Part shown: one piece after another, positions 4,974 through 62,729 of the stretch
Numbering within the stretch: the first letter of the stretch is position 1
Layout of the letters: each line of letters begins with the position of its first letter
Source of the DNA: Eubacteriales bacterium
GTDB taxonomy: Bacteria > Bacillota > Clostridia > Saccharofermentanales > UBA5734
NCBI GenBank assembly: GCA_028684955.1
Contig: JAQUEY010000001.1
Coordinates: 21,593-85,592 of the forward strand
Direction of reading: 5' to 3'
DNA length: 64,000 bases
The notes under the pieces: generated by a model
Seen by the model: the letters and a program-made list of their open reading frames with translations, nothing else
What the model was told of the DNA's origin: nothing
Database searches by the model: none
Position numbers and translations under genes: made by a program

Positions 4974-5540
4974 ATGCACAAACCTTTGATCCGCTCTTTC
5001 CAAGGCAAAAAACCGCAGGTTGACCCCTCGGCATTTATTGCCGAAACAGCCACCCTGATTGGTGACGTGACCATCGGGGCCGAAAGTACAATCTGGTATG
5101 GGGCCGTTTTACGCGGAGATGTCCACCCGATTGTGGTCGGTGCCCAAAGTAATATCCAGGACCAGTCGGTGGTCCATGACCAGGTTGTGATCGGTGACCG
5201 GGTCACCATAGGGCACGGGGTGATCCTGCACGGGTGCACGATTGAAGATGATGCGCTGGTTGGCATGGGCGCAGTGGTGCTGGATGGAGCCGTGATCCAG
5301 CGCGGGGCCATGGTCGCCGCAGGTGCCCTCGTTGCCGGGGGAACAGTGGTCGAGGCAGGATCCCTTTATGCCGGCACGCCGGCCACTTTCAAGCGAACGC
5401 TGGATCCGGGCCGGCTGGAACACAACCGGTTGATCGTCAAGCATCATTTGCAGCATCGGGCACAGTACCTGGAAAATCCAGCGGATCCCCTGGAGCAAGA
5501 GAAGGAAAACGGATCCAGCCTGTCGAATAGTAAAGTGTGA
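4974..5540 (+). CDS. gamma-class carbonic anhydrase-like / hexapeptide-repeat (LbH) protein
   Basis: PQVDPSAFIAETATLIGDVTIGAESTIWYGAVLRGDVHPIVVGAQSNIQDQSVVH matches the YrdA/PaaY-type left-handed beta-helix pattern. Confidence 0.75.
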   Translation: MHKPLIRSFQGKKPQVDPSAFIAETATLIGDVTIGAESTIWYGAVLRGDVHPIVVGAQSNIQDQSVVHDQVVIGDRVTIGHGVILHGCTIEDDALVGMGAVVLDGAVIQRGAMVAAGALVAGGTVVEAGSLYAGTPATFKRTLDPGRLEHNRLIVKHHLQHRAQYLENPADPLEQEKENGSSLSNSKV

Positions 5541-7399
5541 GCAATTCAACTTCCAGTCGCACGATCCCTGATGAGCTGATCGAGGAAATCAAGTCCAGGA
5601 ACGATATTGTCTCGGTCGTCGGGCAGTACGTTCGCCTTGACAAGCGCAGCAGTGCCAATCTCTTCGGGTTATGTCCCTTTCACCATGAGGACACACCTTC
5701 TTTCAGCGTGTCACCCAGCAAACAGATCTTCTATTGCTTTGGTTGCCACAAGGGAGGCAACGTCATCACCTTCATCCGCGAGATTGAAAAATGCACGTGG
5801 CCCCAGGCTTTGAAAATCCTGGCTGACCGCGTGGGCATCCAATTGCCGGAGCCTGATGACCAAGCCTATCGCGAGCGACTCGAACGCACTGCCTCGCTGC
5901 AGAAAATCTATCTGGAAGCAGCCCGCTATTTCTACCACAGCTTGCACAGTCCTGCGGGTGACGTTGCCCGCCGTTATCTGAAAGCACGGGCCATTTCTGA
6001 CAGCACAGCCAAAAAATTCGGCCTCGGATATGCTCTGGATGAATGGGATGGGCTGCTTTTGCATCTGCGTCGCCAAGGACTTGATGATCATCAGCTGATC
6101 AGCCAGTCCGGCCTGTTCAAGCGCGGCAAGTCGGATGGTTTCTATGATTTGTTCCGCAATCGCCTGATGTTCCCAATTTTTGACGCTATGGGCAAAATCA
6201 TCGCTTTTGGCGGGCGCGTCCTCGATGACTCGCAACCCAAATACCTCAACTCGCCTGAGACACCGCTCTACACCAAGGGCCGCCATCTCTACGGCCTGAA
6301 CCTGGCCAAGTCCAGTCAGGACAAGCGCCTCGTCCTGGTCGAAGGCTACATGGACACCCTGGCCATGCACCAGGCCGGGATCGACAACGCTGTAGCTGCC
6401 CTCGGCACGGCGATGACCGAAGCACAGGCCAACCTGATCCGCAAATACACCGACCAGGTCATCGTTGGCTTTGATGCGGACGCGGCTGGCCAGAACGCCG
6501 CTTTGCGCAGTTTGGACATCCTGACATCACGAGGGCTGAAAGTCACCGTTCTGCGTGTTCCGGATGGCAAAGATCCAGACGAATTCATCCGCAAGCACGG
6601 ACCGGAGCGTTTCAAGGTTCTGATCGACCAGGCGCTGCCGCTTCTGGATTTCAAGCTCGATGTGGCCAGGCGCTCCTGTGATGTTCATGGCAATCTCGAC
6701 ATCCTGGCTTTCCAGGACCAGGCTTGCACGATCCTGGCCAAGGAAGACAATGCCATTGTGCGCGAACTGTATGCAGGCAAGGTCAGCGAATGGCTCCATG
6801 CCTCGGCTGACAGCGTCGTGCGCGAGATCGAGCGGCGGCGCGAAGGCTCCGAATCCAGTCCGGCCGCAGATCTGCTGCATCAGCAGCTGGCTGCCCGGAA
6901 AAAGCCAGATGCAGCAGCGCCTCCAGACACGGCCCAGCCTGCTTCACAGCAAGCAACCCGCGAGGAGATCTACCTGTTGTGCTTCCTGGCTGAGCATCCC
7001 ACGCTCTGGGGACGTCTGGAGCAACAACCTGTCCCTGTGGATTTCTCAGAAGGTGTGATGCAGGCGGTAGCCAGCCGGCTGATCGAACATCTGGCCGCAG
7101 GAAAACCTGTCGACAGTGGCGGTCTGATGCTCTGGTCGGAAGCGCTGGTTGTACATGGCCGCTTCCTGACCGATTTGCTGGCCAAGGCCAGCATGAAACT
7201 CGACGAGACATTTGCCGGCCAGGATCCCCTCAAAACCATGAATGAGCTCGTGCGCACAGTCCGCCTCGAGAACTTGCGCCGCCAGCTCAAGGAAACAGCC
7301 GCCCTGGCCCAGGACCCGGATCGTCCGGCAGAAGCAGCCCTGGCCAGGAGGAAGCTCCTGGAAATCAACCAGATGATCCAGAAACTGCGGTCCCGCTGA
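5537..7399 (+). CDS. dnaG: DNA primase
   Basis: Zinc ribbon CPFHHEDTPSFSVSPSKQIFYCFGCHKGGNVITF and a TOPRIM region (LVEGYMD...VGFDADAAG). The GTG start overlaps the upstream stop (GTGA). Confidence 0.92.
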   Translation: MSNSTSSRTIPDELIEEIKSRNDIVSVVGQYVRLDKRSSANLFGLCPFHHEDTPSFSVSPSKQIFYCFGCHKGGNVITFIREIEKCTWPQALKILADRVGIQLPEPDDQAYRERLERTASLQKIYLEAARYFYHSLHSPAGDVARRYLKARAISDSTAKKFGLGYALDEWDGLLLHLRRQGLDDHQLISQSGLFKRGKSDGFYDLFRNRLMFPIFDAMGKIIAFGGRVLDDSQPKYLNSPETPLYTKGRHLYGLNLAKSSQDKRLVLVEGYMDTLAMHQAGIDNAVAALGTAMTEAQANLIRKYTDQVIVGFDADAAGQNAALRSLDILTSRGLKVTVLRVPDGKDPDEFIRKHGPERFKVLIDQALPLLDFKLDVARRSCDVHGNLDILAFQDQACTILAKEDNAIVRELYAGKVSEWLHASADSVVREIERRREGSESSPAADLLHQQLAARKKPDAAAPPDTAQPASQQATREEIYLLCFLAEHPTLWGRLEQQPVPVDFSEGVMQAVASRLIEHLAAGKPVDSGGLMLWSEALVVHGRFLTDLLAKASMKLDETFAGQDPLKTMNELVRTVRLENLRRQLKETAALAQDPDRPAEAALARRKLLEINQMIQKLRSR

Positions 7400-15051: not shown

Positions 15052-18000
15052 ATGCCCTCACGCATTTTTCCCGGCCGTCCTGAACAGCCGGATTGGAATA
15101 GAATCGAGTGCCTGGAGCGGAATCGTTATCCGGCACATGCTTACCTGGTCCAGTTTCCGGACCAGGCGTCTTGTGAGCAGGCTCAGGAGGATAATCGACG
15201 CTACTTGTCACCCTTCATCCAGATGCTGACAGGTACCTGGGATTACAAATGGTTTGATTCGATCCTGCAACTGCCGGAGAATATTTTCTCCTATCGCAGC
15301 GGCTTTGACCGGATGACCGTCCCGGGTTCCCGGCTGGCTCGCGGCCGGTCACAAAGCGAGGCCCGAGCGTGGCCTTTTGTCCTGGACCCACCTCGTGTTC
15401 CTCAGACCCAGCCGGTTGCCGTCTACCACCGCAGTCTTGAACTGCCGAAAAACTGGAGTGCCCTGCGCAAAAAGCTGGTGCTTCAGGGGGTTCTATCGGC
15501 CTGCCATGTGGTCTTGAATGGAAAACTGGTCGGATATGTCCAGAACGGGCGCCATTTGAACGAGTTTGATATCACGTCGCGGGTCCATGACGGGGTCAAT
15601 GAATTATTCATCCTGGTCTATCCATACCATGCTGCCAGTTATCTGGACGGCCAGTGCCAGGCGAATCTGGCAGGGCTGGCCGGTGACATCTATCTGGAAG
15701 CAACGCCTGCTTTATCCGTCTTTGATTGTTCCGTGCATACCCGCCTGGATCCTTTGACGGGTCAGTGGGAACTGGCTGTCCGGGCGTTGGTTCTGACTTT
15801 CAAAGTGACCCAGGACCTGCCCCAGGTGCGATTCACGGTGGCCCGGGAAGGCCGGGTCATTCTGGAGGAGGCCATCAAACCGGAAAAAATTGAGCTGGAG
15901 CACGCTGGATTTGATGCGAAAGTCCAGCAGGCCGGTCTGGCGAGCTTGCACCAGGTTTGTCCGGATATTGATCCGTGGTCTGACGAGCAGCCTGAGCTCT
16001 ATGATCTTTTTATCACCTGCCTCGATGCCAGCGGCAGGGAAACCAGTTCAGTCCACCAGACCGTGGGCTTTTGCGAACGGTCAGTTCGTGACGGCAAGCT
16101 TTATCTCAATCACCAGCCGCTGTTTCTCCAGTTGGCCGATTATGATCCCTGGGATAGCCAGACCGGTCTGATGCGGCCACTTTCGAGTCTGGCCCGTGAC
16201 TTGCGCCTGGTGCGGCAGCATTTCAATGCGATCCGTCTCCTGGGTGGTTCTGTGGATCCCATCTTCTTTGAATTGTGCAATCACCTTGGACTTCTCGTCG
16301 TCATCGGTCCGACTGCTCAACCGATACCGGAATGGCTGTCTGCCGGGAAGTTCAAGGGGGAGGAGCCTTGGCTGAGCGAACCGTGGCGGACAGTCCAGCG
16401 AGATCGCTTGCAAAACCAGGTGATTTTGCTGCAAAACCAGCCTTGTGTCCTGGCCTGGACCACGCACGGCCCGACATCTGAACTGCACGCGCTGGCAGCG
16501 TTCGCCAGAAGTCTGGATCCTACCCGGCCTCTGGTTCTATTTGCCGCTGCCGAAGAAGAGATGGCAGGGAGTCCTGCTTTCGATGCCAGCCAAAACCAAT
16601 TCATCCACATCCTTGAACCAGGTTACAGTCTGCAAGGCGGTGGCACGCATCCGTTTCAGCAGACTCTTTCGGATATGGCCCAAAGCTCGCTCTATTCAGG
16701 GCTGGTCCTGGGCTCCTGGCAGGATGTGCGCACCCAGATGCACACCCCTCACGGCCGGTCCCAGTCAGTCGCACTGGCAGCGATCCGGCAAGCCAGCCGG
16801 CCTGCTGGCATCAGGCCGCTGGATCTTCTGGCCGGACAGTTTCGAGTGGACAACCGGACCCGGACGTTGAACCTGGATCTGTTTCGCCTGCATTGGCAGA
16901 TCGTAGCCAGCGGCCATCTGGTTCTGGCTGGCGAAATCGATTTGCCATCCGTCCTGCCGGGCGAAACCGCTGACCTTTTGATCCCGTATGCGGATGTCGA
17001 GCGCCCTCAGGATTTGCCCTGCCTGTTGCAGCTGACAGTTCACCAGATCGAGGCCAATCTGTGGTCTCCGGCTGACAGGATCGTATCGACTGACAGTTTT
17101 GAACTTGATCTCCTGCCGCCTGTCCGGGACCCGTTTCTCAAACAGCTGGTCCCCGTCATCGCTCCTGGCAGGAATCGACTCCGCCTGGAACAGGATCGCC
17201 ATTTGCTGGTCGTTTCCGGCCACCGCTTCTGGCTCGTGTTCAACCGGATCACCGCCCAGATCGAAAGCTGGCGCTGCAAAGACCATGAATACCTGGCATT
17301 TGTCCAGATGAATGGCCAGCTGGCACCTTCTGCACTTGTTTTCTGGCGACCATTTCTGAGCCAGGATCAGGATTGGGCCTGGGACTGGAACCAGCTGGGC
17401 CTGTCCGAACTGGAGCAAGTGGTTGACCGGATCGATGCCGACTGTGATGGCGAAACAGCTAAGATCGTGGCGCACTGCCGCTTTGGTTCAGCTGGAGCCA
17501 AAACTTGGCTTTCGGCCCGGCTTTCTTACACGATTCGCGAGAGTGGCAAGATTGAGATTTTTGTCAGCCTGCCGTGCAAAAGCCTGGACCTTCTGGCAGA
17601 GCTGCCCCGGATCGGCCTGCGTTTCCTGCTGCGCCGCCAATATGAACGGATCATCTGGTCTGGCCAGGGTCCGGGACCATCCTGGCCCGGTCTGCGCGGG
17701 ATGACTTACAGTGGACAATTCGAACAAGCCCTGTCCGATCTCGTGATGGACTCGAGCCAATCCTTCCAGATGGAAGTGCCACATGCCCAGACACAATGGG
17801 TTGCAGTTGCGGATGCCAGCGGCAGCGGCCTGCTGTTTGAAAGCAACCAGCCTTTCAGCTTTTGCGCCAATGACCGCCTGTCTGACCTTGGATTGCACCA
17901 GGGACACGAAGCACGAGCGACAAGCCAGAACCTGGTCGACTGGAAAATCGACTGGCATTACAAACCGTCCGGCGGTCAGCCTGGTCAAAAACTGGACCAA

Positions 18001-18069
18001 GACGATTTTACCGGAACACAGAACACAGCAGAGTTTTACGTCGCACTGACGCCTGTGACAGGACTCTGA
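15052..18069 (+). CDS. glycoside hydrolase family 2 (LacZ-like beta-galactosidase fold) protein, active site apparently degenerate
   Basis: 1005 aa, collinear by eye with E. coli LacZ: DWNRIECLERNRYPAHAY..., NAIRLLGG (LacZ NAVRCSHY), SLDPTRP (LacZ SVDPSRP), and C-terminal RIGLRFLL...IIWSGQGPGPSWPG (LacZ RIGLNCQL...VNWLGLGPQENYPD). Catalytic motifs are substituted (see findings). Confidence 0.7.
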   Translation: MPSRIFPGRPEQPDWNRIECLERNRYPAHAYLVQFPDQASCEQAQEDNRRYLSPFIQMLTGTWDYKWFDSILQLPENIFSYRSGFDRMTVPGSRLARGRSQSEARAWPFVLDPPRVPQTQPVAVYHRSLELPKNWSALRKKLVLQGVLSACHVVLNGKLVGYVQNGRHLNEFDITSRVHDGVNELFILVYPYHAASYLDGQCQANLAGLAGDIYLEATPALSVFDCSVHTRLDPLTGQWELAVRALVLTFKVTQDLPQVRFTVAREGRVILEEAIKPEKIELEHAGFDAKVQQAGLASLHQVCPDIDPWSDEQPELYDLFITCLDASGRETSSVHQTVGFCERSVRDGKLYLNHQPLFLQLADYDPWDSQTGLMRPLSSLARDLRLVRQHFNAIRLLGGSVDPIFFELCNHLGLLVVIGPTAQPIPEWLSAGKFKGEEPWLSEPWRTVQRDRLQNQVILLQNQPCVLAWTTHGPTSELHALAAFARSLDPTRPLVLFAAAEEEMAGSPAFDASQNQFIHILEPGYSLQGGGTHPFQQTLSDMAQSSLYSGLVLGSWQDVRTQMHTPHGRSQSVALAAIRQASRPAGIRPLDLLAGQFRVDNRTRTLNLDLFRLHWQIVASGHLVLAGEIDLPSVLPGETADLLIPYADVERPQDLPCLLQLTVHQIEANLWSPADRIVSTDSFELDLLPPVRDPFLKQLVPVIAPGRNRLRLEQDRHLLVVSGHRFWLVFNRITAQIESWRCKDHEYLAFVQMNGQLAPSALVFWRPFLSQDQDWAWDWNQLGLSELEQVVDRIDADCDGETAKIVAHCRFGSAGAKTWLSARLSYTIRESGKIEIFVSLPCKSLDLLAELPRIGLRFLLRRQYERIIWSGQGPGPSWPGLRGMTYSGQFEQALSDLVMDSSQSFQMEVPHAQTQWVAVADASGSGLLFESNQPFSFCANDRLSDLGLHQGHEARATSQNLVDWKIDWHYKPSGGQPGQKLDQDDFTGTQNTAEFYVALTPVTGL

Positions 18070-18113
18070 GGAGCCAAAGAATGCTCATACCATCATCAGG
18101 AGGAAGATAGAAG

Positions 18114-19391
18114 ATGTCTGTCAGAATCGAAACCCAGTGTATCCATGAAGGTTACAAGCCGGCCAAGGGTGAACCCAGGCAACTGCCCATCTATCAAAGC
18201 ACCACGTTCAAATACGATACCAGTGACGAGATGGGCCGGTTATTTGATCTCGAGGAAGCGGGCTATTTTTACACCCGCCTGCAAAACCCAACCAATGATG
18301 CTGTCGCTGACAAGATCCGGGCCCTGGAGGGTGGTGCGGCCGCCATGCTGACTGCCTCCGGCCAGGCAGCCAACTTCTATGCGATTTTCAACATCTGTGA
18401 ATCCGGGGACCATTTTATAGCTACTTCTTCGATCTATGGCGGTACGTACAACCTGTTCGGCGTCACCTTGAAAAAAATGGGCATCGAATGCACCTTTGTC
18501 AATCAGGATTTGCCGGAAAACGAGTTGGACCGGTATTTCCAGCCAAACACCAAAGCTGTTTTCGGCGAGACCATCACCAATCCGACCGTCGCCGTGTTTG
18601 ACATCGAGAAATTCGCCCGTCTGGCCCACAAGCACGGGGTGCCGCTGATCGTGGACAACACCTTTGCAACACCGATCAATTGCCGCCCCTTTGAATGGGG
18701 TGCCGACATCGTCACCCATTCGACAACCAAGTACATGGACGGGCATGCGGCCGGCGTGGGTGGCTGCATCGTCGACAGCGGCAAGTTCGACTGGCTGGCC
18801 CAGGCCGAAAAATTCCCCGGCCTGACCACACCGGATGACTCCTATCACGGCATCATCTACGCCGAACGGTTCGGTCCGGGTGCCTACATCACCAAAGCCA
18901 CCGCCCAGCTGATGCGCGACATCGGAGCCATCCAGTCGCCGCAAAATGCCTTCTATCTGAATTTCGGTCTGGAAACCCTGCATCTGCGCATGAAGCAACA
19001 CTGTGCCAATGCCCTGGCCGTTGCCCAATACCTGGCAAGCCATTCCAAGATCGCCTGGGTCAACTATCCGGATCTGCCAACCAGTCCATCCTTTGAGCTG
19101 GCTCAAAAATACCTGCCACACGGCTCTTGCGGCGTCCTGGCGTTCGGGGTCAAAGGCAGCCGCGAACAGGCCAATCGATTCATGGACAGTTTGCAGCTGG
19201 CATCGATCGTCACCCATGTGGCCGATAGCAAGACCTGCCTGCTCCATCCGGCCAGCCATACGCACCGCCAGTTGTCCAACGAGCAATTGCAGGCTGCAGG
19301 CATTGCGCCTGACCTGATCCGCCTGTCGGTCGGCATTGAAAATGTGGCAGATATCATCGAGGACTTGGAGCAGGCCCTCGGCAAGATCTGA
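18114..19391 (+). CDS. metY: O-acetylhomoserine sulfhydrylase / aminocarboxypropyltransferase (PLP-dependent)
   Basis: IHEGY...PIYQSTTFKYD...GYFYTRLQNPT...VDNTFATP...HSTTKYMDGH (PLP lysine)...LSVGIE. Confidence 0.88.
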   Translation: MSVRIETQCIHEGYKPAKGEPRQLPIYQSTTFKYDTSDEMGRLFDLEEAGYFYTRLQNPTNDAVADKIRALEGGAAAMLTASGQAANFYAIFNICESGDHFIATSSIYGGTYNLFGVTLKKMGIECTFVNQDLPENELDRYFQPNTKAVFGETITNPTVAVFDIEKFARLAHKHGVPLIVDNTFATPINCRPFEWGADIVTHSTTKYMDGHAAGVGGCIVDSGKFDWLAQAEKFPGLTTPDDSYHGIIYAERFGPGAYITKATAQLMRDIGAIQSPQNAFYLNFGLETLHLRMKQHCANALAVAQYLASHSKIAWVNYPDLPTSPSFELAQKYLPHGSCGVLAFGVKGSREQANRFMDSLQLASIVTHVADSKTCLLHPASHTHRQLSNEQLQAAGIAPDLIRLSVGIENVADIIEDLEQALGKI

Positions 19392-19415
19392 GTAAAAGGT
19401 CCAAGCTAGACAAAT

Positions 19416-19453
19416 AAAAAATCCTGGGGCCTCAATGAAGTCCCAGGATTTTT
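19416..19453. terminator. bidirectional intrinsic terminator (A-tract / hairpin / T-tract)
   Basis: AAAAATCCTGGG pairs with CCCAGGATTTTT around a 13-nt loop. Sits downstream of metY. Confidence 0.7.
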
Positions 19454-19457
19454 CGCT

Positions 19458-19492
19458 TGGCAAGGGAGACGCGATTCGAACACGCAACCCGC
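19458..19492 (-). pseudogene. 3' fragment of tRNA-Trp (T arm, acceptor 3' strand, CCA); no 5' half
   Basis: The reverse complement matches the 3' 35 nt of the intact tRNA-Trp at 20300-20334, with one acceptor-stem change. The sequence diverges inside the anticodon stem. Confidence 0.85.
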
Positions 19493-19601
19493 AGCTATTT
19501 AGCTTAGAGATAGTCAGAGAATAGTGCTTCATATCAGAAAATATGGTATTGTATTTGATATCATGTAATTAATTTCAATTTATTTCATCTAACAATAACT
19601 G

Positions 19602-19856
19602 TTGGAGGGGGTCATTGAGATTAGTACATATGAAAAGCTTGATGCCAAGGTTCGAAGTTTACCAAGTAATTTATCCATGAATGAAGCAGATCGTTTTTTA
19701 CGGCATTATGGATTTGTTAAAGTCAGGCAAAGAGGATCTCATTGTGTTTACAAAAGAGCGGCAGCACCAATCATCAATATCCAAGGCTCAATCATACCTG
19801 AATATCAAGTTGCTCAGATGATCATTGCTGTTGATCGTATTCAGAAAGAGGTTTAA
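19602..19856 (+). CDS. hicA: HicA-family mRNA interferase toxin (start codon uncertain)
   Basis: ADRFLRHYGFVKVRQRGSHCVYKR fits the HicA pattern (GF...R..GSH..Y). Track start is TTG 19602. Alternative is ATG 19677, giving a 59-aa protein of typical HicA size (see findings). Confidence 0.7.
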   Translation: MEGVIEISTYEKLDAKVRSLPSNLSMNEADRFLRHYGFVKVRQRGSHCVYKRAAAPIINIQGSIIPEYQVAQMIIAVDRIQKEV

Positions 19857-19860
19857 TAAC

Positions 19861-20259
19861 ATGTATCCAGAATACAAGAAACTCATTTTCCCGTATTCCA
19901 ATCGGGATGGATCCGTCTCATGGGTCGTTGACTTTCCTGACTTACCTGGCTGTTCAGCAGTCGGAAAAACTCAGGAAGAGGCCCTGGGCGAGTCTAAAAT
20001 AGCCAGTGAATTGTGGCTAGATGCTTATTATGATGAACATCATTGCTATCCTGAAGCAAAGCAAATGAGTCAAACATTTAGTGGCAGAATCGCTTTGAGA
20101 ATTCCCAAAACGTTACACAAAGAACTTAGCGAACAAGCGCAACTCGAGGGAGTCAGCCTGAATTCACTCATTATCACTCTGTTGGCACAAAATTTTGGTA
20201 AGCGTCTCAGTAGGCCTGTCATCAATATCAAAGAAAAGAGATATAGGGCAAGCGTATAA
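19861..20259 (+). CDS. hicB: HicB-family antitoxin with C-terminal ribbon-helix-helix domain
   Basis: N-terminal HicB fold pattern (SWVVDFPDLPGCSAVGKTQEEAL) and C-terminal RHH (GRIALRIPKTLHKELSEQAQLEGVSLNSLIITLL). ATG 19861 is 4 nt after the hicA stop. Confidence 0.8.
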   Translation: MYPEYKKLIFPYSNRDGSVSWVVDFPDLPGCSAVGKTQEEALGESKIASELWLDAYYDEHHCYPEAKQMSQTFSGRIALRIPKTLHKELSEQAQLEGVSLNSLIITLLAQNFGKRLSRPVINIKEKRYRASV

Positions 20260-20334
20260 AAAATCCTGGGGCCTCAATGAAGTCCCAGGATTTTTCGCTT
20301 GGCAGGGGAGACGCGATTCGAACACGCAACCCGC
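20256..20334. repeat. 79-bp direct repeat, copy 2 (part of the intact tRNA-Trp plus terminator)
   Basis: See copy 1. The hicB stop codon TAA (20257-20259) lies inside the repeat. Confidence 0.95.
20258..20295. terminator. bidirectional intrinsic terminator (duplicate copy) serving hicB (+) and tRNA-Trp (-)
   Basis: Same hairpin as 19416-19453. Confidence 0.7.
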
Positions 20335-20374
20335 GGTTTTGGAGACCGCTGCTCTACCGTTGAGCCACTCCCCT
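20300..20374 (-). tRNA. tRNA-Trp (anticodon CCA), CCA encoded
   Basis: Reverse complement: AGGGGAG-TG-GCTC-AACGGTA-GAGC-A-GCGGT-CTCCAAA-ACCGC-GGGTT-GCGTG-TTCGAAT-CGCGT-CTCCCCT-G-CCA. Confidence 0.9.
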
Positions 20375-20462
20375 AAGCGCGAAGTCAATGATAGCATTGC
20401 CGCCGGGAGCTGTCAATCTGGAAAATTTATTCGGTACAGACGATTCTATAAGTCCGTTCGAA

Positions 20463-20492
20463 TTGCCACGTGCTCGTTTGGAATGGTATGAT
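20463..20492 (+). promoter_or_regulatory. candidate promoter for proC
   Basis: TTGCCA (20463-20468), 18-nt spacer, TATGAT (20487-20492) with TG at -15/-14. Confidence 0.35.
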
Positions 20493-20555
20493 TTGTCTGC
20501 GACCGCCATTTTTGGCGGCTCTATTTGCTGTCAAAAACCTACAGGAGGATCTCCT

Positions 20556-21365
20556 ATGAAATTAGCAGTCATCGGTACCGGACAGATGGGCCAGGCTCTG
20601 GTTCACGCCATGATCAGCCAGGCGGCCATTCCTGCCGAGTCAATCATCTTGTATGACAGCCAGGCGGACAAAGCCCTGGCGCTGGCCGAGACTTTTGGTT
20701 GCGAAGTGTCCGCCTCGGGACGGGAGGCTGCCAGTTCTGCGGATGCCATTCTTTTAGCCGTCAAACCTCAGGTCATGAAAACAGTCCTCGAGGACTTGGC
20801 CGGAGATTTAAGGGCAGACGCTCTGCTGATATCGATCGCTGCCGGCGTCACGCTGGCTCAGCTGCGCAACTGGGCTGGTCCATCGGTAGCCCTCGCCCGG
20901 GTCATGCCCAATACGCCGGCCATGGTTCACAGTGGCGTCAGCGCAGTCTGTTTCGACCAGGCCAGCGAAGACCTGCAAGCCTGGACCGTGCACCTGCTCG
21001 AATCCAGTGGTCTCGTCTTCAAGGTGCCTGAATCAGCGATGGATGCGGTGACAGGCCTTTCCGGCAGTGGACCCGCCTATGTGATGCTGGTGATCGAGGC
21101 CCTCGCCGATGGCGGTGTGCGCATGGGATTGCCGCGCGACATGGCGTTGCAAATGGCTGCCCAGACGGTCTATGGCTCAGCCAAGCTGGTGCTGGCCACC
21201 GGTAAGCATCCAGGGGTTCTCAAGGACCAGGTCTGTTCTCCGGGTGGCACCACGATTGAAGCGGTTGCGACCTTGGAGAAAAATGGCCTGCGTTCGAGTC
21301 TGATCGAGGCGGTCACAGCTGCGACCGAACGTTCGCGGGAACTGGGTCGGGGATTGAAAGCTTGA
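20556..21365 (+). CDS. proC: pyrroline-5-carboxylate reductase
   Basis: MKLAVIGTGQMGQAL...LLAVKPQ...RVMPNTPA...SGSGPAY...VCSPGGTT. ATG follows AGGAGG. Confidence 0.9.
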   Translation: MKLAVIGTGQMGQALVHAMISQAAIPAESIILYDSQADKALALAETFGCEVSASGREAASSADAILLAVKPQVMKTVLEDLAGDLRADALLISIAAGVTLAQLRNWAGPSVALARVMPNTPAMVHSGVSAVCFDQASEDLQAWTVHLLESSGLVFKVPESAMDAVTGLSGSGPAYVMLVIEALADGGVRMGLPRDMALQMAAQTVYGSAKLVLATGKHPGVLKDQVCSPGGTTIEAVATLEKNGLRSSLIEAVTAATERSRELGRGLKA

Positions 21366-21367
21366 GT

Positions 21368-21817
21368 ATGCCGCAGGTCGAGATCTACACCGATGGTGCC
21401 TGTTCTGGCAATCCAGGACCCGGCGGCTGGGCAGCGGTCCTGATCGCCGGAGGCATTGAAAAGGAAATCTCAGGTGGGGAAGCGGCCACCACCAATAACC
21501 GCATGGAACTGACGGCCGCGATCGAGGCTTTGAAAAAACTGAACCGGCCCTGTCAAGTCAGGCTTTACAGTGACAGTGCCTATCTGGTCTCTGCCTTCAA
21601 CCAGGGCTGGATCCGCAACTGGCAGAGAAATGGCTGGCGCAATGCGGCTAATGATCCGGTCAGCAACCCGGATCTCTGGCGGGCCCTGCTCGACGCCGCC
21701 CAGCCCCACACCGTCGAATGGATCAAGGTCAAGGGCCATTCTGATAATGTTTACAACAATCGCTGCGATAAATTGGCTGTCGCTGAAATCAAAGGAAGAG
21801 GATCCAACAATGCCTGA
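21368..21817 (+). CDS. rnhA: ribonuclease HI
   Basis: VEIYTDGACSGNPGPGGWAAVL...TTNNRMELTAAIEAL...LYSDSAY...VKGHSDNVYNNRCDKLA. Confidence 0.9.
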   Translation: MPQVEIYTDGACSGNPGPGGWAAVLIAGGIEKEISGGEAATTNNRMELTAAIEALKKLNRPCQVRLYSDSAYLVSAFNQGWIRNWQRNGWRNAANDPVSNPDLWRALLDAAQPHTVEWIKVKGHSDNVYNNRCDKLAVAEIKGRGSNNA

Positions 21818-22373
21818 ATCCGAACACAATTTTCGTGAAGAAACGACTGGCATGGACCAGAAATTCGCTGGTCGTGTTTTCCAGGTCGAGGTCCATGAGG
21901 TGCGTCTGCCGGACGGCCGCCTGGCAAGCCGGGAGATCGTCCGCCATTCCGGCGGAGCCTGTGTGGTCGCTATCGATGACCAGGACCATGTCTACCTGGT
22001 CCGGCAATATCGCAAACCTTATGACACTGAGCTGCTCGAACTGCCAGCTGGCAAGCTGGAACCAGGAGAAGATCCGCTGGCCTGTGCCACCCGTGAACTG
22101 ACGGAGGAAACCGGCATGACTGCCAGGTCCATCGAGTGGCTGGCCACTGTCTACCCATCGCCAGGCTATTGCAGTGAAACCCTCTCCATTTATCTGGCGA
22201 CCGGTCTGACCTATGGCCAGAGCAATCTCGATGATGGAGAATTTCTCAGTGTCCATCCTTATCCGCTTGAGGAAGCACTGGCTATGGTGGACCGCGGCGA
22301 CATCCGTGATGCCAAAACCATCGTTGGCCTGCTGCGGGCCCAGCGTGTCCTTCTCCAAAGGAAGGGGACCTGA
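21810..22373 (+). CDS. NUDIX hydrolase, ADP-ribose pyrophosphatase-like
   Basis: Nudix box GKLEPGEDPLACATRELTEETG. ATG 21810 overlaps the rnhA end by 8 nt. Confidence 0.8.
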   Translation: MPESEHNFREETTGMDQKFAGRVFQVEVHEVRLPDGRLASREIVRHSGGACVVAIDDQDHVYLVRQYRKPYDTELLELPAGKLEPGEDPLACATRELTEETGMTARSIEWLATVYPSPGYCSETLSIYLATGLTYGQSNLDDGEFLSVHPYPLEEALAMVDRGDIRDAKTIVGLLRAQRVLLQRKGT

Positions 22374-61612: not shown

Positions 61613-62647
61613 TCAGCTCTTGCGTCGCCGTCTGCTGAGAGGATTGCTTTCCACGGCCTGGTGCAGGCTGTCCGCATCTACATGGGTGTAGATTTCGGTG
61701 GTCGCGATGCTGGAATGACCGAGGATCTCCTGGAGTGCCCGGATGTCGACTTTGCCGTATTTGTACATCAGTGTGGCAGCTGTGTGGCGTAATTTGTGCG
61801 TCGAATAGCGCTCTGGATCGAGTCCGGAAGCCGCGATGAAATTCTTGACCAGAAGCTGGACCCGTTTGGTGCTGATCCGGCGGTGGTTGCGACTGACAAA
61901 AAGCGCATCTGGATCGCTGTTTTGCTTGTCCGGCCTTACTATCAGGTAATCTTCGAGTGCATCGAGGCAGGCAGCATTGAGATAGATGGTCCGTTCCTTG
62001 CCACCTTTGCCCAGCACGCGCAACGTATCGCCCCGGATATCCGACCGGTCGATGTTGCACAGCTCGGACAAGCGCATGCCACAGTTGAGAAACAAGGTCA
62101 GGATGCAGTAATCCCGGGCAGACCAGGCATGATTCGATTCTGCTGCGGTCTCGAGGAGCTTCTCGCTTTCCTCAAGTGACAAATGGCGGGGCAGGCGGCG
62201 CAACAAACGCGGAGATTCTAGTTCCAAGGCAATGTTTTCGTCGAGGATCCGGGCTTTGTTTTTCAGATAGCCGAAAAAAGTCCGGATCGATGCAACGCGC
62301 CGGGCCCGGATGGCCGGGCCGTTTTTGCGTTCGACCGACAGGAAGGTGATGAAAGCGTACAAGTCCGCCAGACTGATGGAACGGATCAGGTTCTCATCGA
62401 CAGGGGCCAGTGAGGTTTCATCAAAGGACAGGTCAGCGGGGCACAAGCGCCGACGCCGGACCATGAAACGGAAGAAGAGGACCAGGTCATACCGGTACTC
62501 TTTGATTGTCAGGGGAGACCGTTCCTTGATCGACTGGAAATAGCCCAGGAACTGGTCGAGCCAGATAAAACTGTCCTGCGGCTTCGGTACAGGTTGCTTT
62601 TTCGTTTTCCTGGCAGCCTGTTGGTGGGGCAATGCATGACCGGTCAT
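61613..62647 (-). CDS. tyrosine site-specific recombinase (XerC/XerD-type)
   Basis: Catalytic pattern CGMRLSEL (Arg), LGKGGKERT (Lys), HKLRHTAAT (His-x-x-Arg), and LGHSSIATTEIYTHV (His, Tyr), with an N-terminal SAM-like core-binding domain. ATG 62647 follows GGAAGGA; the ORF-track TTG at 62713 is less likely. Confidence 0.85.
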   Translation of the reverse strand: MTGHALPHQQAARKTKKQPVPKPQDSFIWLDQFLGYFQSIKERSPLTIKEYRYDLVLFFRFMVRRRRLCPADLSFDETSLAPVDENLIRSISLADLYAFITFLSVERKNGPAIRARRVASIRTFFGYLKNKARILDENIALELESPRLLRRLPRHLSLEESEKLLETAAESNHAWSARDYCILTLFLNCGMRLSELCNIDRSDIRGDTLRVLGKGGKERTIYLNAACLDALEDYLIVRPDKQNSDPDALFVSRNHRRISTKRVQLLVKNFIAASGLDPERYSTHKLRHTAATLMYKYGKVDIRALQEILGHSSIATTEIYTHVDADSLHQAVESNPLSRRRRKS

Positions 62648-62700
62648 GTTCACAGTCCTTCCAGATGAGGTGAATTCATTGTCCCTTAAAGGCCAGTCGC

Positions 62701-62729
62701 TTGTCAAAGGCAACCTGCTATGTTACAAT
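62701..62729 (+). promoter_or_regulatory. candidate sigma-A promoter for asd
   Basis: TTGTCA (62701-62706), 17-nt spacer, TACAAT (62724-62729). Confidence 0.5.

Follow-up and report, generated by a model that had tools for sequence, protein, structure and literature searches.

The 64-kb stretch of clostridial DNA analysed here (the window; contig JAQUEY010000001.1 of an Eubacteriales bacterium) harbours a hicAB toxin-antitoxin cassette, located between metY and a tRNA-Trp gene and bracketed by two direct repeats, C1 on the metY side and C2 at the tRNA (Table 1). A repeat finder run over positions 18000-22000 returned this pair as the single outstanding family: 79 nt, identical at 78 positions and 842 nt apart from start to start. 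A match of this length at this spacing is far beyond chance, and a fuzzy search allowing 6-8 mismatches found no third copy of either repeat half in the window. C2 comprises the 3' 35 nt of the intact tRNA-Trp and the 44 nt that follow the tRNA 3' end; a promoter-like site for this tRNA matches the consensus at 11 of 12 positions. The corresponding 35 nt of C1 are an orphan fragment, in which neither ARAGORN nor Rfam called a tRNA. The sole mismatch between the copies (A at 19463, G at 20305) would convert the acceptor-stem pair G2-C71 to a G2-U71 wobble. The 44 nt outside the tRNA hold a 37-nt imperfect palindrome with an A-run and a T-run on its two sides (predicted fold of the C1 copy -23.5 kcal/mol on the plus strand, z = -4.2, and -24.4 kcal/mol on the minus strand, z = -5.0). 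On this folding the hairpin looks like a bidirectional intrinsic terminator; a simple consensus terminator scan overlooked it because of an internal mismatch. The repeat finder, ARAGORN, Rfam and folding agree with the preliminary description of the locus, which had read each repeat as a terminator hairpin plus the 3' end of tRNA-Trp, and all of its factual points on the locus hold.

Table 1. Features of the hicAB locus and of related loci. Positions refer to the window unless they are preceded by the name of a related locus (L).
Feature	Position	Strand	Description
metY	18114-19391	+	O-acetylhomoserine sulfhydrylase-type pyridoxal phosphate enzyme, host-side left neighbour (PF01053, E = 4e-128; synteny)
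C1 (copy 1, attR-like end)	19414-19492	.	Hairpin 19417-19453, spacer, orphan tRNA-Trp 3' 35 nt 19458-19492 (tRNA sense = minus)
AT-rich leader	19493-19601	+	Ribosome-binding site GGAGG at 19604
Candidate HicB operator	19556-19563		Palindrome TGATATCA
hicA, toxin gene	19602-19856	+	84 codons from TTG; long-N-terminus HicA form; GSH motif; PF07927
hicB, antitoxin gene	19861-20259	+	132 aa; RNase-H-like N-terminal domain (PF15919) and C-terminal HicB domain (PF05534); stop TAA 20257-20259
C2 (copy 2, attL-like end)	20256-20334	.	Same hairpin 20259-20295, spacer, 3' 35 nt of intact tRNA-Trp
Intact tRNA-Trp(CCA)	20300-20374	-	CCA encoded; ARAGORN; Rfam 64 bits
Promoter-like site for tRNA-Trp	20416-20388		TTGACA-17-TATCAT
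proC	20556-21365	+	Host-side right neighbour (synteny)
Xer-like gene	61613-62713	-	Tyrosine recombinase, 41 kb away
Region A gene 1, L106	L106:3978-4532	-	184-aa protein
Region A gene 2, L106	L106:4748-5542	+	264-aa protein
Region A genes, L121	L121:4547-5101 and 5374-5913		Intact as in L106
Shortened hicA	L106:5738-5941		67 codons
Type I restriction-modification block	L112:2811-7594 (also L111, L113-L120)		hsdM 695 aa, hsdS 433 aa, hsdR start
GH2 to tRNA-Trp intervals	L016:9336-9743 and L017:9606-9653		metY missing
70-aa open reading frame	L016:9391-9603		Between GH2 and tRNA-Trp, followed by very AT-rich DNA
Non-coding insert	L096:9010-9990		~1 kb between tRNA-Trp and the proC promoter; direct-repeat families of 38 nt and 24-32 nt

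The window derives from a metagenome-assembled genome, in which a mis-join could have doubled a single terminator/tRNA end. However, the same repeat-flanked structure was present in two further independent assemblies of another species-level lineage (L107 and L110), and C1 and C2 are told apart by a single-nucleotide polymorphism. Independent short-read contigs from other samples, carrying an identical MetY or ProC (L001, L002), both break at the repeat, where two copies predict a break: L001 stops 1 nt before the A/G mismatch and L002 begins 30 nt before it, which is the branching expected of a k=31 assembly graph with both copies present. An assembly artefact, a concern raised in the preliminary description, is effectively refuted.

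The 763 nt between C1 and C2 encode only hicA and hicB and have a GC content of 31-45%, compared to ~57% in the flanks. hicA is located directly upstream of hicB (intergenic gap of 4 nt) and the hicB stop codon falls inside C2; an AT-rich interval with this content had been reported before, and composition and Pfam matches bear it out. The match of HicA to PF07927 was marginal (28 bits vs. a cut-off of 27), and HicB scored 41.9 bits against PF05534 and 34.9 bits against PF15919. The window HicB is identical to NCBI MDD2456907.1, which is encoded on a contig of 98.6 kb, while an exact-sequence look-up of the window HicA and HicB in the contig index gave no match. The hicA-hicB order, the GSH motif, the HicB domain layout and purifying selection are those of chromosomal HicAB cassettes (PF07927/PF15919/PF05534), and the window proteins are in themselves in no way unusual. 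In this family HicA is a ribosome-independent ribonuclease; HicB neutralises HicA and represses the operon. The ratio of nonsynonymous to synonymous substitution rates (dN/dS) among three lineages was 0.09-0.12 for hicA and 0.07-0.15 for hicB. Because it was 0.07-0.15 in all comparisons, both genes are maintained by purifying selection. As part of the best explanation of the locus, hicAB would remain a functional type II toxin-antitoxin pair, with HicB as a probable autorepressor. The first part of the leader (19493-19524) was found exclusively in the repeat-flanked type and is fast-evolving (~75% identity to L107), while from ~19525 onward the leader is homologous across all hicAB-bearing lineages; the palindrome TGATATCA lies in this conserved part and is a candidate HicB operator. 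In L106 hicA is shortened, with its last 17 residues gone and hicB intact, and may be a decaying toxin in this one lineage. The closest HicB relatives outside the genus are 58-71% identical (L005-L015) and occur in unrelated contexts with no tRNA nearby; these homologues are uninformative on the att structure.

The neighbours of the locus are genes for a GH2 glycosidase, metY, proC, RNase H (rnhA), a NUDIX gene and ftsK. No integrase was found within ~10 kb of the cassette, in agreement with the preliminary description. In the window as a whole, 20 of the 47 open reading frames of at least 150 codons were examined, and the only tyrosine recombinase among them is the Xer-like gene, which sits between a radical-SAM gene and asd. 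Its product has an N-terminal SAM-like domain and scored 213 bits against the XerC model (equivalog cut-off 335). This gene is probably a chromosome-dimer resolvase and not an island integrase.

C1 and C2 are in direct orientation, and the element is bounded by an intact tRNA gene and a displaced 3' fragment. This layout, in which the tRNA gene is regenerated, is the classical mark of an island as described for Islander (PMC4383910). The hicAB locus is like Islander islands (PMC4383910) in its intact tRNA, in the displaced fragment that starts in the anticodon stem/loop and in its cargo of foreign composition; by contrast, it fails the integrase-gene filter and its identity block runs at least 44 nt past the tRNA end. 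The C1 boundary in the window lies in the 3' strand of the anticodon stem, so that the tRNA-Trp fragment ends at a recognised crossover sublocation. The locus is probably the residual stump of an old genomic island that was integrated at tRNA-Trp, has long been resident and has decayed. The layout, the end in the anticodon stem/loop, the AT-rich cargo and a second insertion in a sister lineage (see below) all support the decayed tRNA-island stump of the preliminary description. That description had set the stump against a cis-mobilizable element (CIME) as an either/or. The two are not exclusive, since a CIME is a decayed remnant of an integrative and conjugative or integrative and mobilizable element (ICE or IME) that has retained attL and attR (PMC5704250); the stump and the structural CIME both stand, and mobility is not supported. 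On its sequence the locus fits a CIME in the structural sense, with att-like repeats of 79-82 nt and no recombinase. Streptococcal CIMEs (PMC5704250) likewise lack integrase and transfer genes and are flanked by direct repeats that include the end of the target tRNA (its 3' end), but the hicAB locus differs from them in having no known parental ICE or IME, an eroded loop-side edge of the orphan fragment and an accretion lineage that lacks the distal repeat.

Related loci were fetched via ProC and HicB. The tRNA-Trp(-)/proC adjacency was kept in ~20 of them (mostly Clostridia), none of which has a second tRNA-Trp fragment within 10 kb. The window ProC is 89% identical to that of the nearest species representative, 'Mageeibacillus sp. 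UBA5747'. Five arrangements (T1-T5) were found between the conserved GH2 gene and the conserved tRNA-Trp(-)/proC pair. In T1 (window, L107, L110) the order is metY, C1, hicAB and C2/tRNA; L107 (ENA sediment assembly, 609-kb contig) and L110 (JGI, 314-kb contig) are mutually identical. In T2 (L096, L106, L121 and the short contig L004) the order is metY, a segment that we call region A, hicAB and terminator/tRNA, without the orphan fragment. T3 (L111-L120; at least 24 metagenome contigs, from wastewater and elsewhere) has the T2 layout, but the terminator/tRNA 3' half adjacent to hicB is orphaned and is followed by a type I restriction-modification (RM) block. T4 (L016) comprises GH2, ~400 nt, a different terminator and tRNA-Trp, without metY and without hicAB, and in T5 (L017, a more distant relative) GH2, a terminator and tRNA-Trp follow each other directly, without metY; in both, tRNA-Trp comes almost at once after GH2, and their terminators differ. 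Five metY-bearing lineages were sampled (window, L107/L110, L096/L112, L106 and L121), and hicAB is present at this site in all five.

Region A (40-51% GC in the sister lineages) contains, in L106, a gene for a zinc-ribbon/membrane protein of 184 aa, a lipoprotein gene of 264 aa and a hairpin of its own. The 184-aa protein has Cys-rich zinc-ribbon-like motifs and a C-terminal membrane segment, its 264-aa partner is a predicted lipoprotein, and neither matched a Pfam family. The two genes are intact in L106 and L121 and broken in L096 and L112. This pattern of intact and decayed genes, together with the GC-poor cargo, fits differential deletion of a larger ancestor.

The T3 arrangement supplies a second insertion at the same tRNA. 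The order there is orphan terminator/tRNA 3' half next to hicB, 365 AT-rich bases, hsdM, hsdS and the start of hsdR. ARAGORN called no tRNA in the orphan half, which reads TTGCA instead of TGGCA. L111-L120 belong to the same species as L096: L112 (T3), the one compared, and L096 (T2) have 98-99% nucleotide identity over metY-hicAB, and L096 lacks the RM block; because of this identity the block is a recent and independent gain within one species. In the L112 orphan the identity to the tRNA continues through GCGGTTTTGGAG and ends exactly at the 5' edge of the anticodon loop, 6 nt from the T1 C1 boundary in tRNA-Trp. No convincing open reading frame that could be an integrase remnant was found in the 365 nt between the L112 orphan fragment and hsdM; the T3 contigs all end inside hsdR, which places the far end of the RM block beyond the reach of the integrase check. 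Anticodon-centred attP sites are the commonest class (PMC4383910). Two independent events within a few bases of each other at this sublocation favour site-specific recombination over random long target duplication, and tRNA-Trp is a recurrent insertion hotspot in this uncultured clostridial genus. In the three-step model proposed for streptococci an element integrates, decays to a CIME and is joined by a new element that accretes at the tRNA-proximal att site (PMC5704250). The T3 lineage carries such a second block at the tRNA-proximal att and so shows the accretion step, with hicAB as the resident remnant beside which the new block was added.

Insertion with long target duplication, described for RM cassettes (Nobusato et al. 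2000, as cited in Furuta et al. 2010, PMC2853133), offers a route that does not involve an integrase. A hicAB fragment would have been inserted with duplication of ~80-90 nt of host terminator and tRNA 3' half, as for RM cassettes in Helicobacter, Haemophilus and others. The hicAB locus shares with those cassettes an addiction-type cargo (PMC2853133), an insert without a mobility gene and host-like direct repeats of more than 30 bp; its repeat is far longer than transposase target duplications and runs well past the tRNA into a host-specific terminator. Moreover, the T1 insert would begin with the eroded 32 nt beside C1 and end at the stop of hicB, and where only a single copy exists, the ~10 nt that separate this stop from the terminator match the left flank of C1. 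Yet the right boundary lies at the anticodon stem/loop, at most 6 nt from the independent RM insertion, which would be rare for a random staggered break. The repeat is the tRNA 3' half up to the anticodon region, as opposed to a non-att sequence found in single copy at an empty site; the cargo is a toxin-antitoxin pair, and no empty site is available to show a single-copy target. PMC2853133 itself takes tRNA-matching repeats as likely products of site-specific recombination. We consider long target duplication unlikely.

The age of the repeat-flanked structure was estimated by comparing the window with L107. Identity between the two is ~80% in GH2 and 84% across proC-ftsK, and synonymous divergence (dS) is 0.95 for proC, 0.46 for rnhA, 0.38 for metY and 0.28-0.31 for hicA/hicB. 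The two have the same junctions on either side of C1 (22-24 nt after the metY stop on the left, 32 nt on the right), and a 10-nt deletion common to both has moved the hicB stop into the A-run of C2. Because of these shared features, the structure has a single origin that predates the window/L107 split. The L107/L110 repeat is 82 nt long, with copies that are 100% identical, and reaches GCGGTT, so that it takes in the complete 3' strand of the anticodon stem and the base that opens the loop; the last four bases of C1 in the window are AGCT where L107/L110 read on to GCGGTT. To the left of C1, ~10 nt (AGACAAAT...) match the spacer between the hicB stop and the terminator in T2/T3, most clearly in L004; because of this match the ancestral duplicated block was ~90 nt long, starting right after the hicB stop.

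C1 shows none of the decay expected at this age. It is 95% identical between the window and L107, compared to 80% in the non-coding left flank and ~75% in the first ~50 nt to its right. The tRNA part of C1 differs at 1 of 35 positions, whereas the synonymous rate of hicAB predicts ~8.6 differences (Poisson P ~0.002). A spacer variant, TTTTTCGC in the window and TTTTTTACAC in L107, is present in both copies of its own genome. Because the variant is shared within each genome and the orphan tRNA fragment is undecayed, the copies are being homogenised or constrained. The simplest explanation is repeated gene conversion from the selected C2, with edges eroding where the tracts rarely reach. The near-identity of C1 and C2 says nothing about the recency of the integration. 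The terminator 3' of tRNA-Trp also varies between lineages: in an alignment of the window, L107, L004, L112, L096, L106 and L121 the upper stem and loop come in two versions (CCTCAATGAAGT-type and CATCTAAGAYG-type), as does the spacer (CGC or ACAC), combined as a mosaic, and L112 and L096 differ in their terminator alleles despite 98-99% identity otherwise. This mosaic suggests recombination or hairpin-templated multi-base changes.

A recent origin of C1 would account for its near-identity to C2, and it would follow if C1 were secondary: a region-A type ancestor (metY, two genes, hicAB, tRNA) would have undergone a tandem duplication of hicAB, terminator and tRNA 3' half and then a deletion, with no integration at all. 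The region-A arrangement does occur in more of the sampled lineages (L096/L112, L106, L121, L004). However, the window and L107 share the structure at dS ~0.3, which makes the origin old and leaves homogenisation necessary. Two events are needed, with end-points that mimic the island signature by coincidence, and the region-A genomes lack any equivalent of the two segments flanking C1 (22-24 nt on the metY side, 32 nt on the right). A secondary C1 is highly improbable.

The hicAB segment has probably also been exchanged between lineages. Its dS is about one third of that of proC between the T1 lineages, and in the T2 lineages a block that starts within region A and runs across hicAB as far as the tRNA has 97-98% identity, compared to 84-90% in the flanks; by these comparisons the island segment is younger than the surrounding core. 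The left ends of the similar T2 blocks vary from pair to pair and lie within region A, and T2 has no distal repeat. This pattern looks like allelic exchange by homologous recombination between related lineages and not like integrase-mediated transfer. As far as the data go, hicAB is not moving as a discrete att-bounded unit. metY is likewise less diverged between lineages than its neighbours (dS of 0.38-0.57 vs. 0.70-0.95 for proC), and the whole metY-hicAB segment may have a history separate from that of the flanking core genes.

The other alternative in the preliminary description was a very small module that is still mobile, with its integrase provided in trans. On this view both repeats would be working att sites, an integrase encoded elsewhere, for example by an incoming tRNA-Trp-specific element, would still move the 0.84-kb hicAB unit, and selection on att function rather than gene conversion would keep the copies identical. 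The structural CIME definition fits this proposal, with att-like repeats kept and recombination genes lost (PMC5704250), as do the perfect or near-perfect identity of the copies, the activity in a sister lineage of an element aimed at the same tRNA position, and the lower divergence of hicAB than of the core flanks (dS of 0.3 vs. 0.46-0.95; in the region-A lineages, 97-98% vs. 84-90% nucleotide identity). Nevertheless, the arrangement is fixed, with homologous junctions, in two species-level lineages at a hicAB dS of ~0.3, and no empty site turned up. At 3 of the 7 loop positions C1 and C2 disagree, and the edge of C1 is further eroded in the window, which would impair a tyrosine recombinase with an overlap in the loop. 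The similar block of the region-A lineages, with its variable left ends and no C1, points to homologous recombination. Phages, plasmids and IMG/VR have no close HicB: IMG/VR yielded no HicB relative and, in an exact scan, 0 matches to the tRNA-Trp 3' 33-mer, and the phage and plasmid collections yielded only distant homologues (at most 46% identity). Because these searches gave no close relative, no donor element can be named. The terminator/tRNA junction GTCCCAGGATTTTTCGCTTGGCA likewise had 0 exact matches among JGI metagenome contigs, because the JGI relatives bear the other spacer allele. Mobility at present is not supported by the distribution and the eroded loop edge, and we regard an active CIME as distinctly unlikely.

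In a broader version of this proposal the tRNA-Trp 3' half would be a capture site, at which addiction and defence cassettes without an integrase (hicAB; type I RM) are inserted, stacked and exchanged by a recombinase encoded elsewhere, with C1 and C2 identical as att sites still in use. If this were true, the toxin-antitoxin pair would itself constitute a mobile unit, of 0.84 kb. Such a unit is smaller than the CIMEs of the streptococcal literature, and to our knowledge there would be no smaller cis-mobilizable element. We judge the capture-site proposal very unlikely.

On the favoured reading, a decayed island at tRNA-Trp, the starting site would have been GH2, metY, terminator and tRNA-Trp. 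A GC-poor island with hicAB at its tRNA-proximal end would have integrated at the anticodon loop, most likely via a tyrosine integrase. Integration would have displaced the original tRNA 3' half and the downstream terminator, which became C1 and would now serve as the metY terminator, while the island brought the replacement C2, which completes a working tRNA and which hicAB abuts. The integrase would then have been lost, with deletions that differed by lineage: in T1 the distal repeat was presumably kept and all cargo but hicAB lost, and in T2 the distal repeat was lost and two more genes kept. The RM block would have been added later in one lineage (T3). From then on the cassette would have been handed down in the genus, apart from some recombination between lineages, and gene conversion from the copy that is constrained as part of the tRNA would have kept C1 and C2 alike but for their outer edges, which erode. 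A stable toxin and a labile antitoxin would penalise deletion between the 79-nt repeats, which could explain why hicAB survived; hicAB plausibly disfavours loss of the segment in this way. The analysis shows how the locus is built, how old it is and where it occurs, that hicAB is under purifying selection, that C1 has not decayed and that a sister lineage has a second insertion at the same tRNA position, while integrase involvement, gene conversion as the homogeniser and addiction as the cause of retention are inferred.

Several points weigh against this scenario. The insertion itself was never directly observed, as no metY-terminator-tRNA-Trp empty site was found among the five metY-bearing lineages, and neither an integrase nor an integrase remnant was present in any version of the locus. 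The identity block extends at least 44 nt (ancestrally ~54 nt) past the tRNA 3' end and includes a lineage-specific terminator; the preliminary description had already called it longer than a typical att core, and it is indeed long for attP/attB, while a host-sequence duplication would produce such a block automatically. In both lineages only 4 of the seven anticodon-loop positions of C1 agree with the tRNA, and for this reason the crossover point is not sharply defined. Selection on C1 itself, as the metY terminator or conceivably as an att site, would yield the same pattern as gene conversion, and the case for concerted evolution rests on one or two spacer mutational events plus the lack of decay. 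The missing empty site, the missing integrase and the long identity block are the weak points that keep long target duplication and the active CIME alive. The preliminary description had named the absence of empty-site alleles, together with the absence of a compositional contrast, as speaking against an integrated element; empty-site alleles are indeed absent, but the compositional contrast is clear (31-45% vs. ~57% GC).

Two further observations concern the surroundings of tRNA-Trp in the relatives. The non-coding insert between tRNA-Trp and the proC promoter of L096 also occurs at the starts of L097, L100, L104 and L105, and many assemblies break within it. L097-L105, which have the L096-type ProC, end in this repeat-rich insert upstream of proC, short of the tRNA, and L098-L103 (same ProC as L096) have a different, shorter sequence at the position of the insert. 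In L016, the 70-aa open reading frame between GH2 and tRNA-Trp had only two short homologues in 5.8 billion proteins and no family match. A guess that it might be a C-terminal remnant of hsdR, and thus tie L016 to the lineage with the RM block, was unsupported by Pfam, NCBIfam, a plasmid tblastn and a large protein search, and was dropped.

The locus reveals no new mechanism and is a real, fairly ordinary genomic scar; the concerted evolution of its attL/attR-like repeats and the survival of a toxin-antitoxin pair alone are worth a note, although they would not surprise a specialist. This matters for programs that detect islands with fragment identity as a clock or with an integrase as a requirement: here, att repeats that are nearly identical are no sign of recent integration. 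The locus shows the late fate of a tRNA island that has lost its machinery: only the tRNA-adjacent toxin-antitoxin pair survives, still under purifying selection, and the displaced tRNA fragment tracks the live tRNA over ~0.3 synonymous substitutions per site, with eroding edges and no pseudogene decay.

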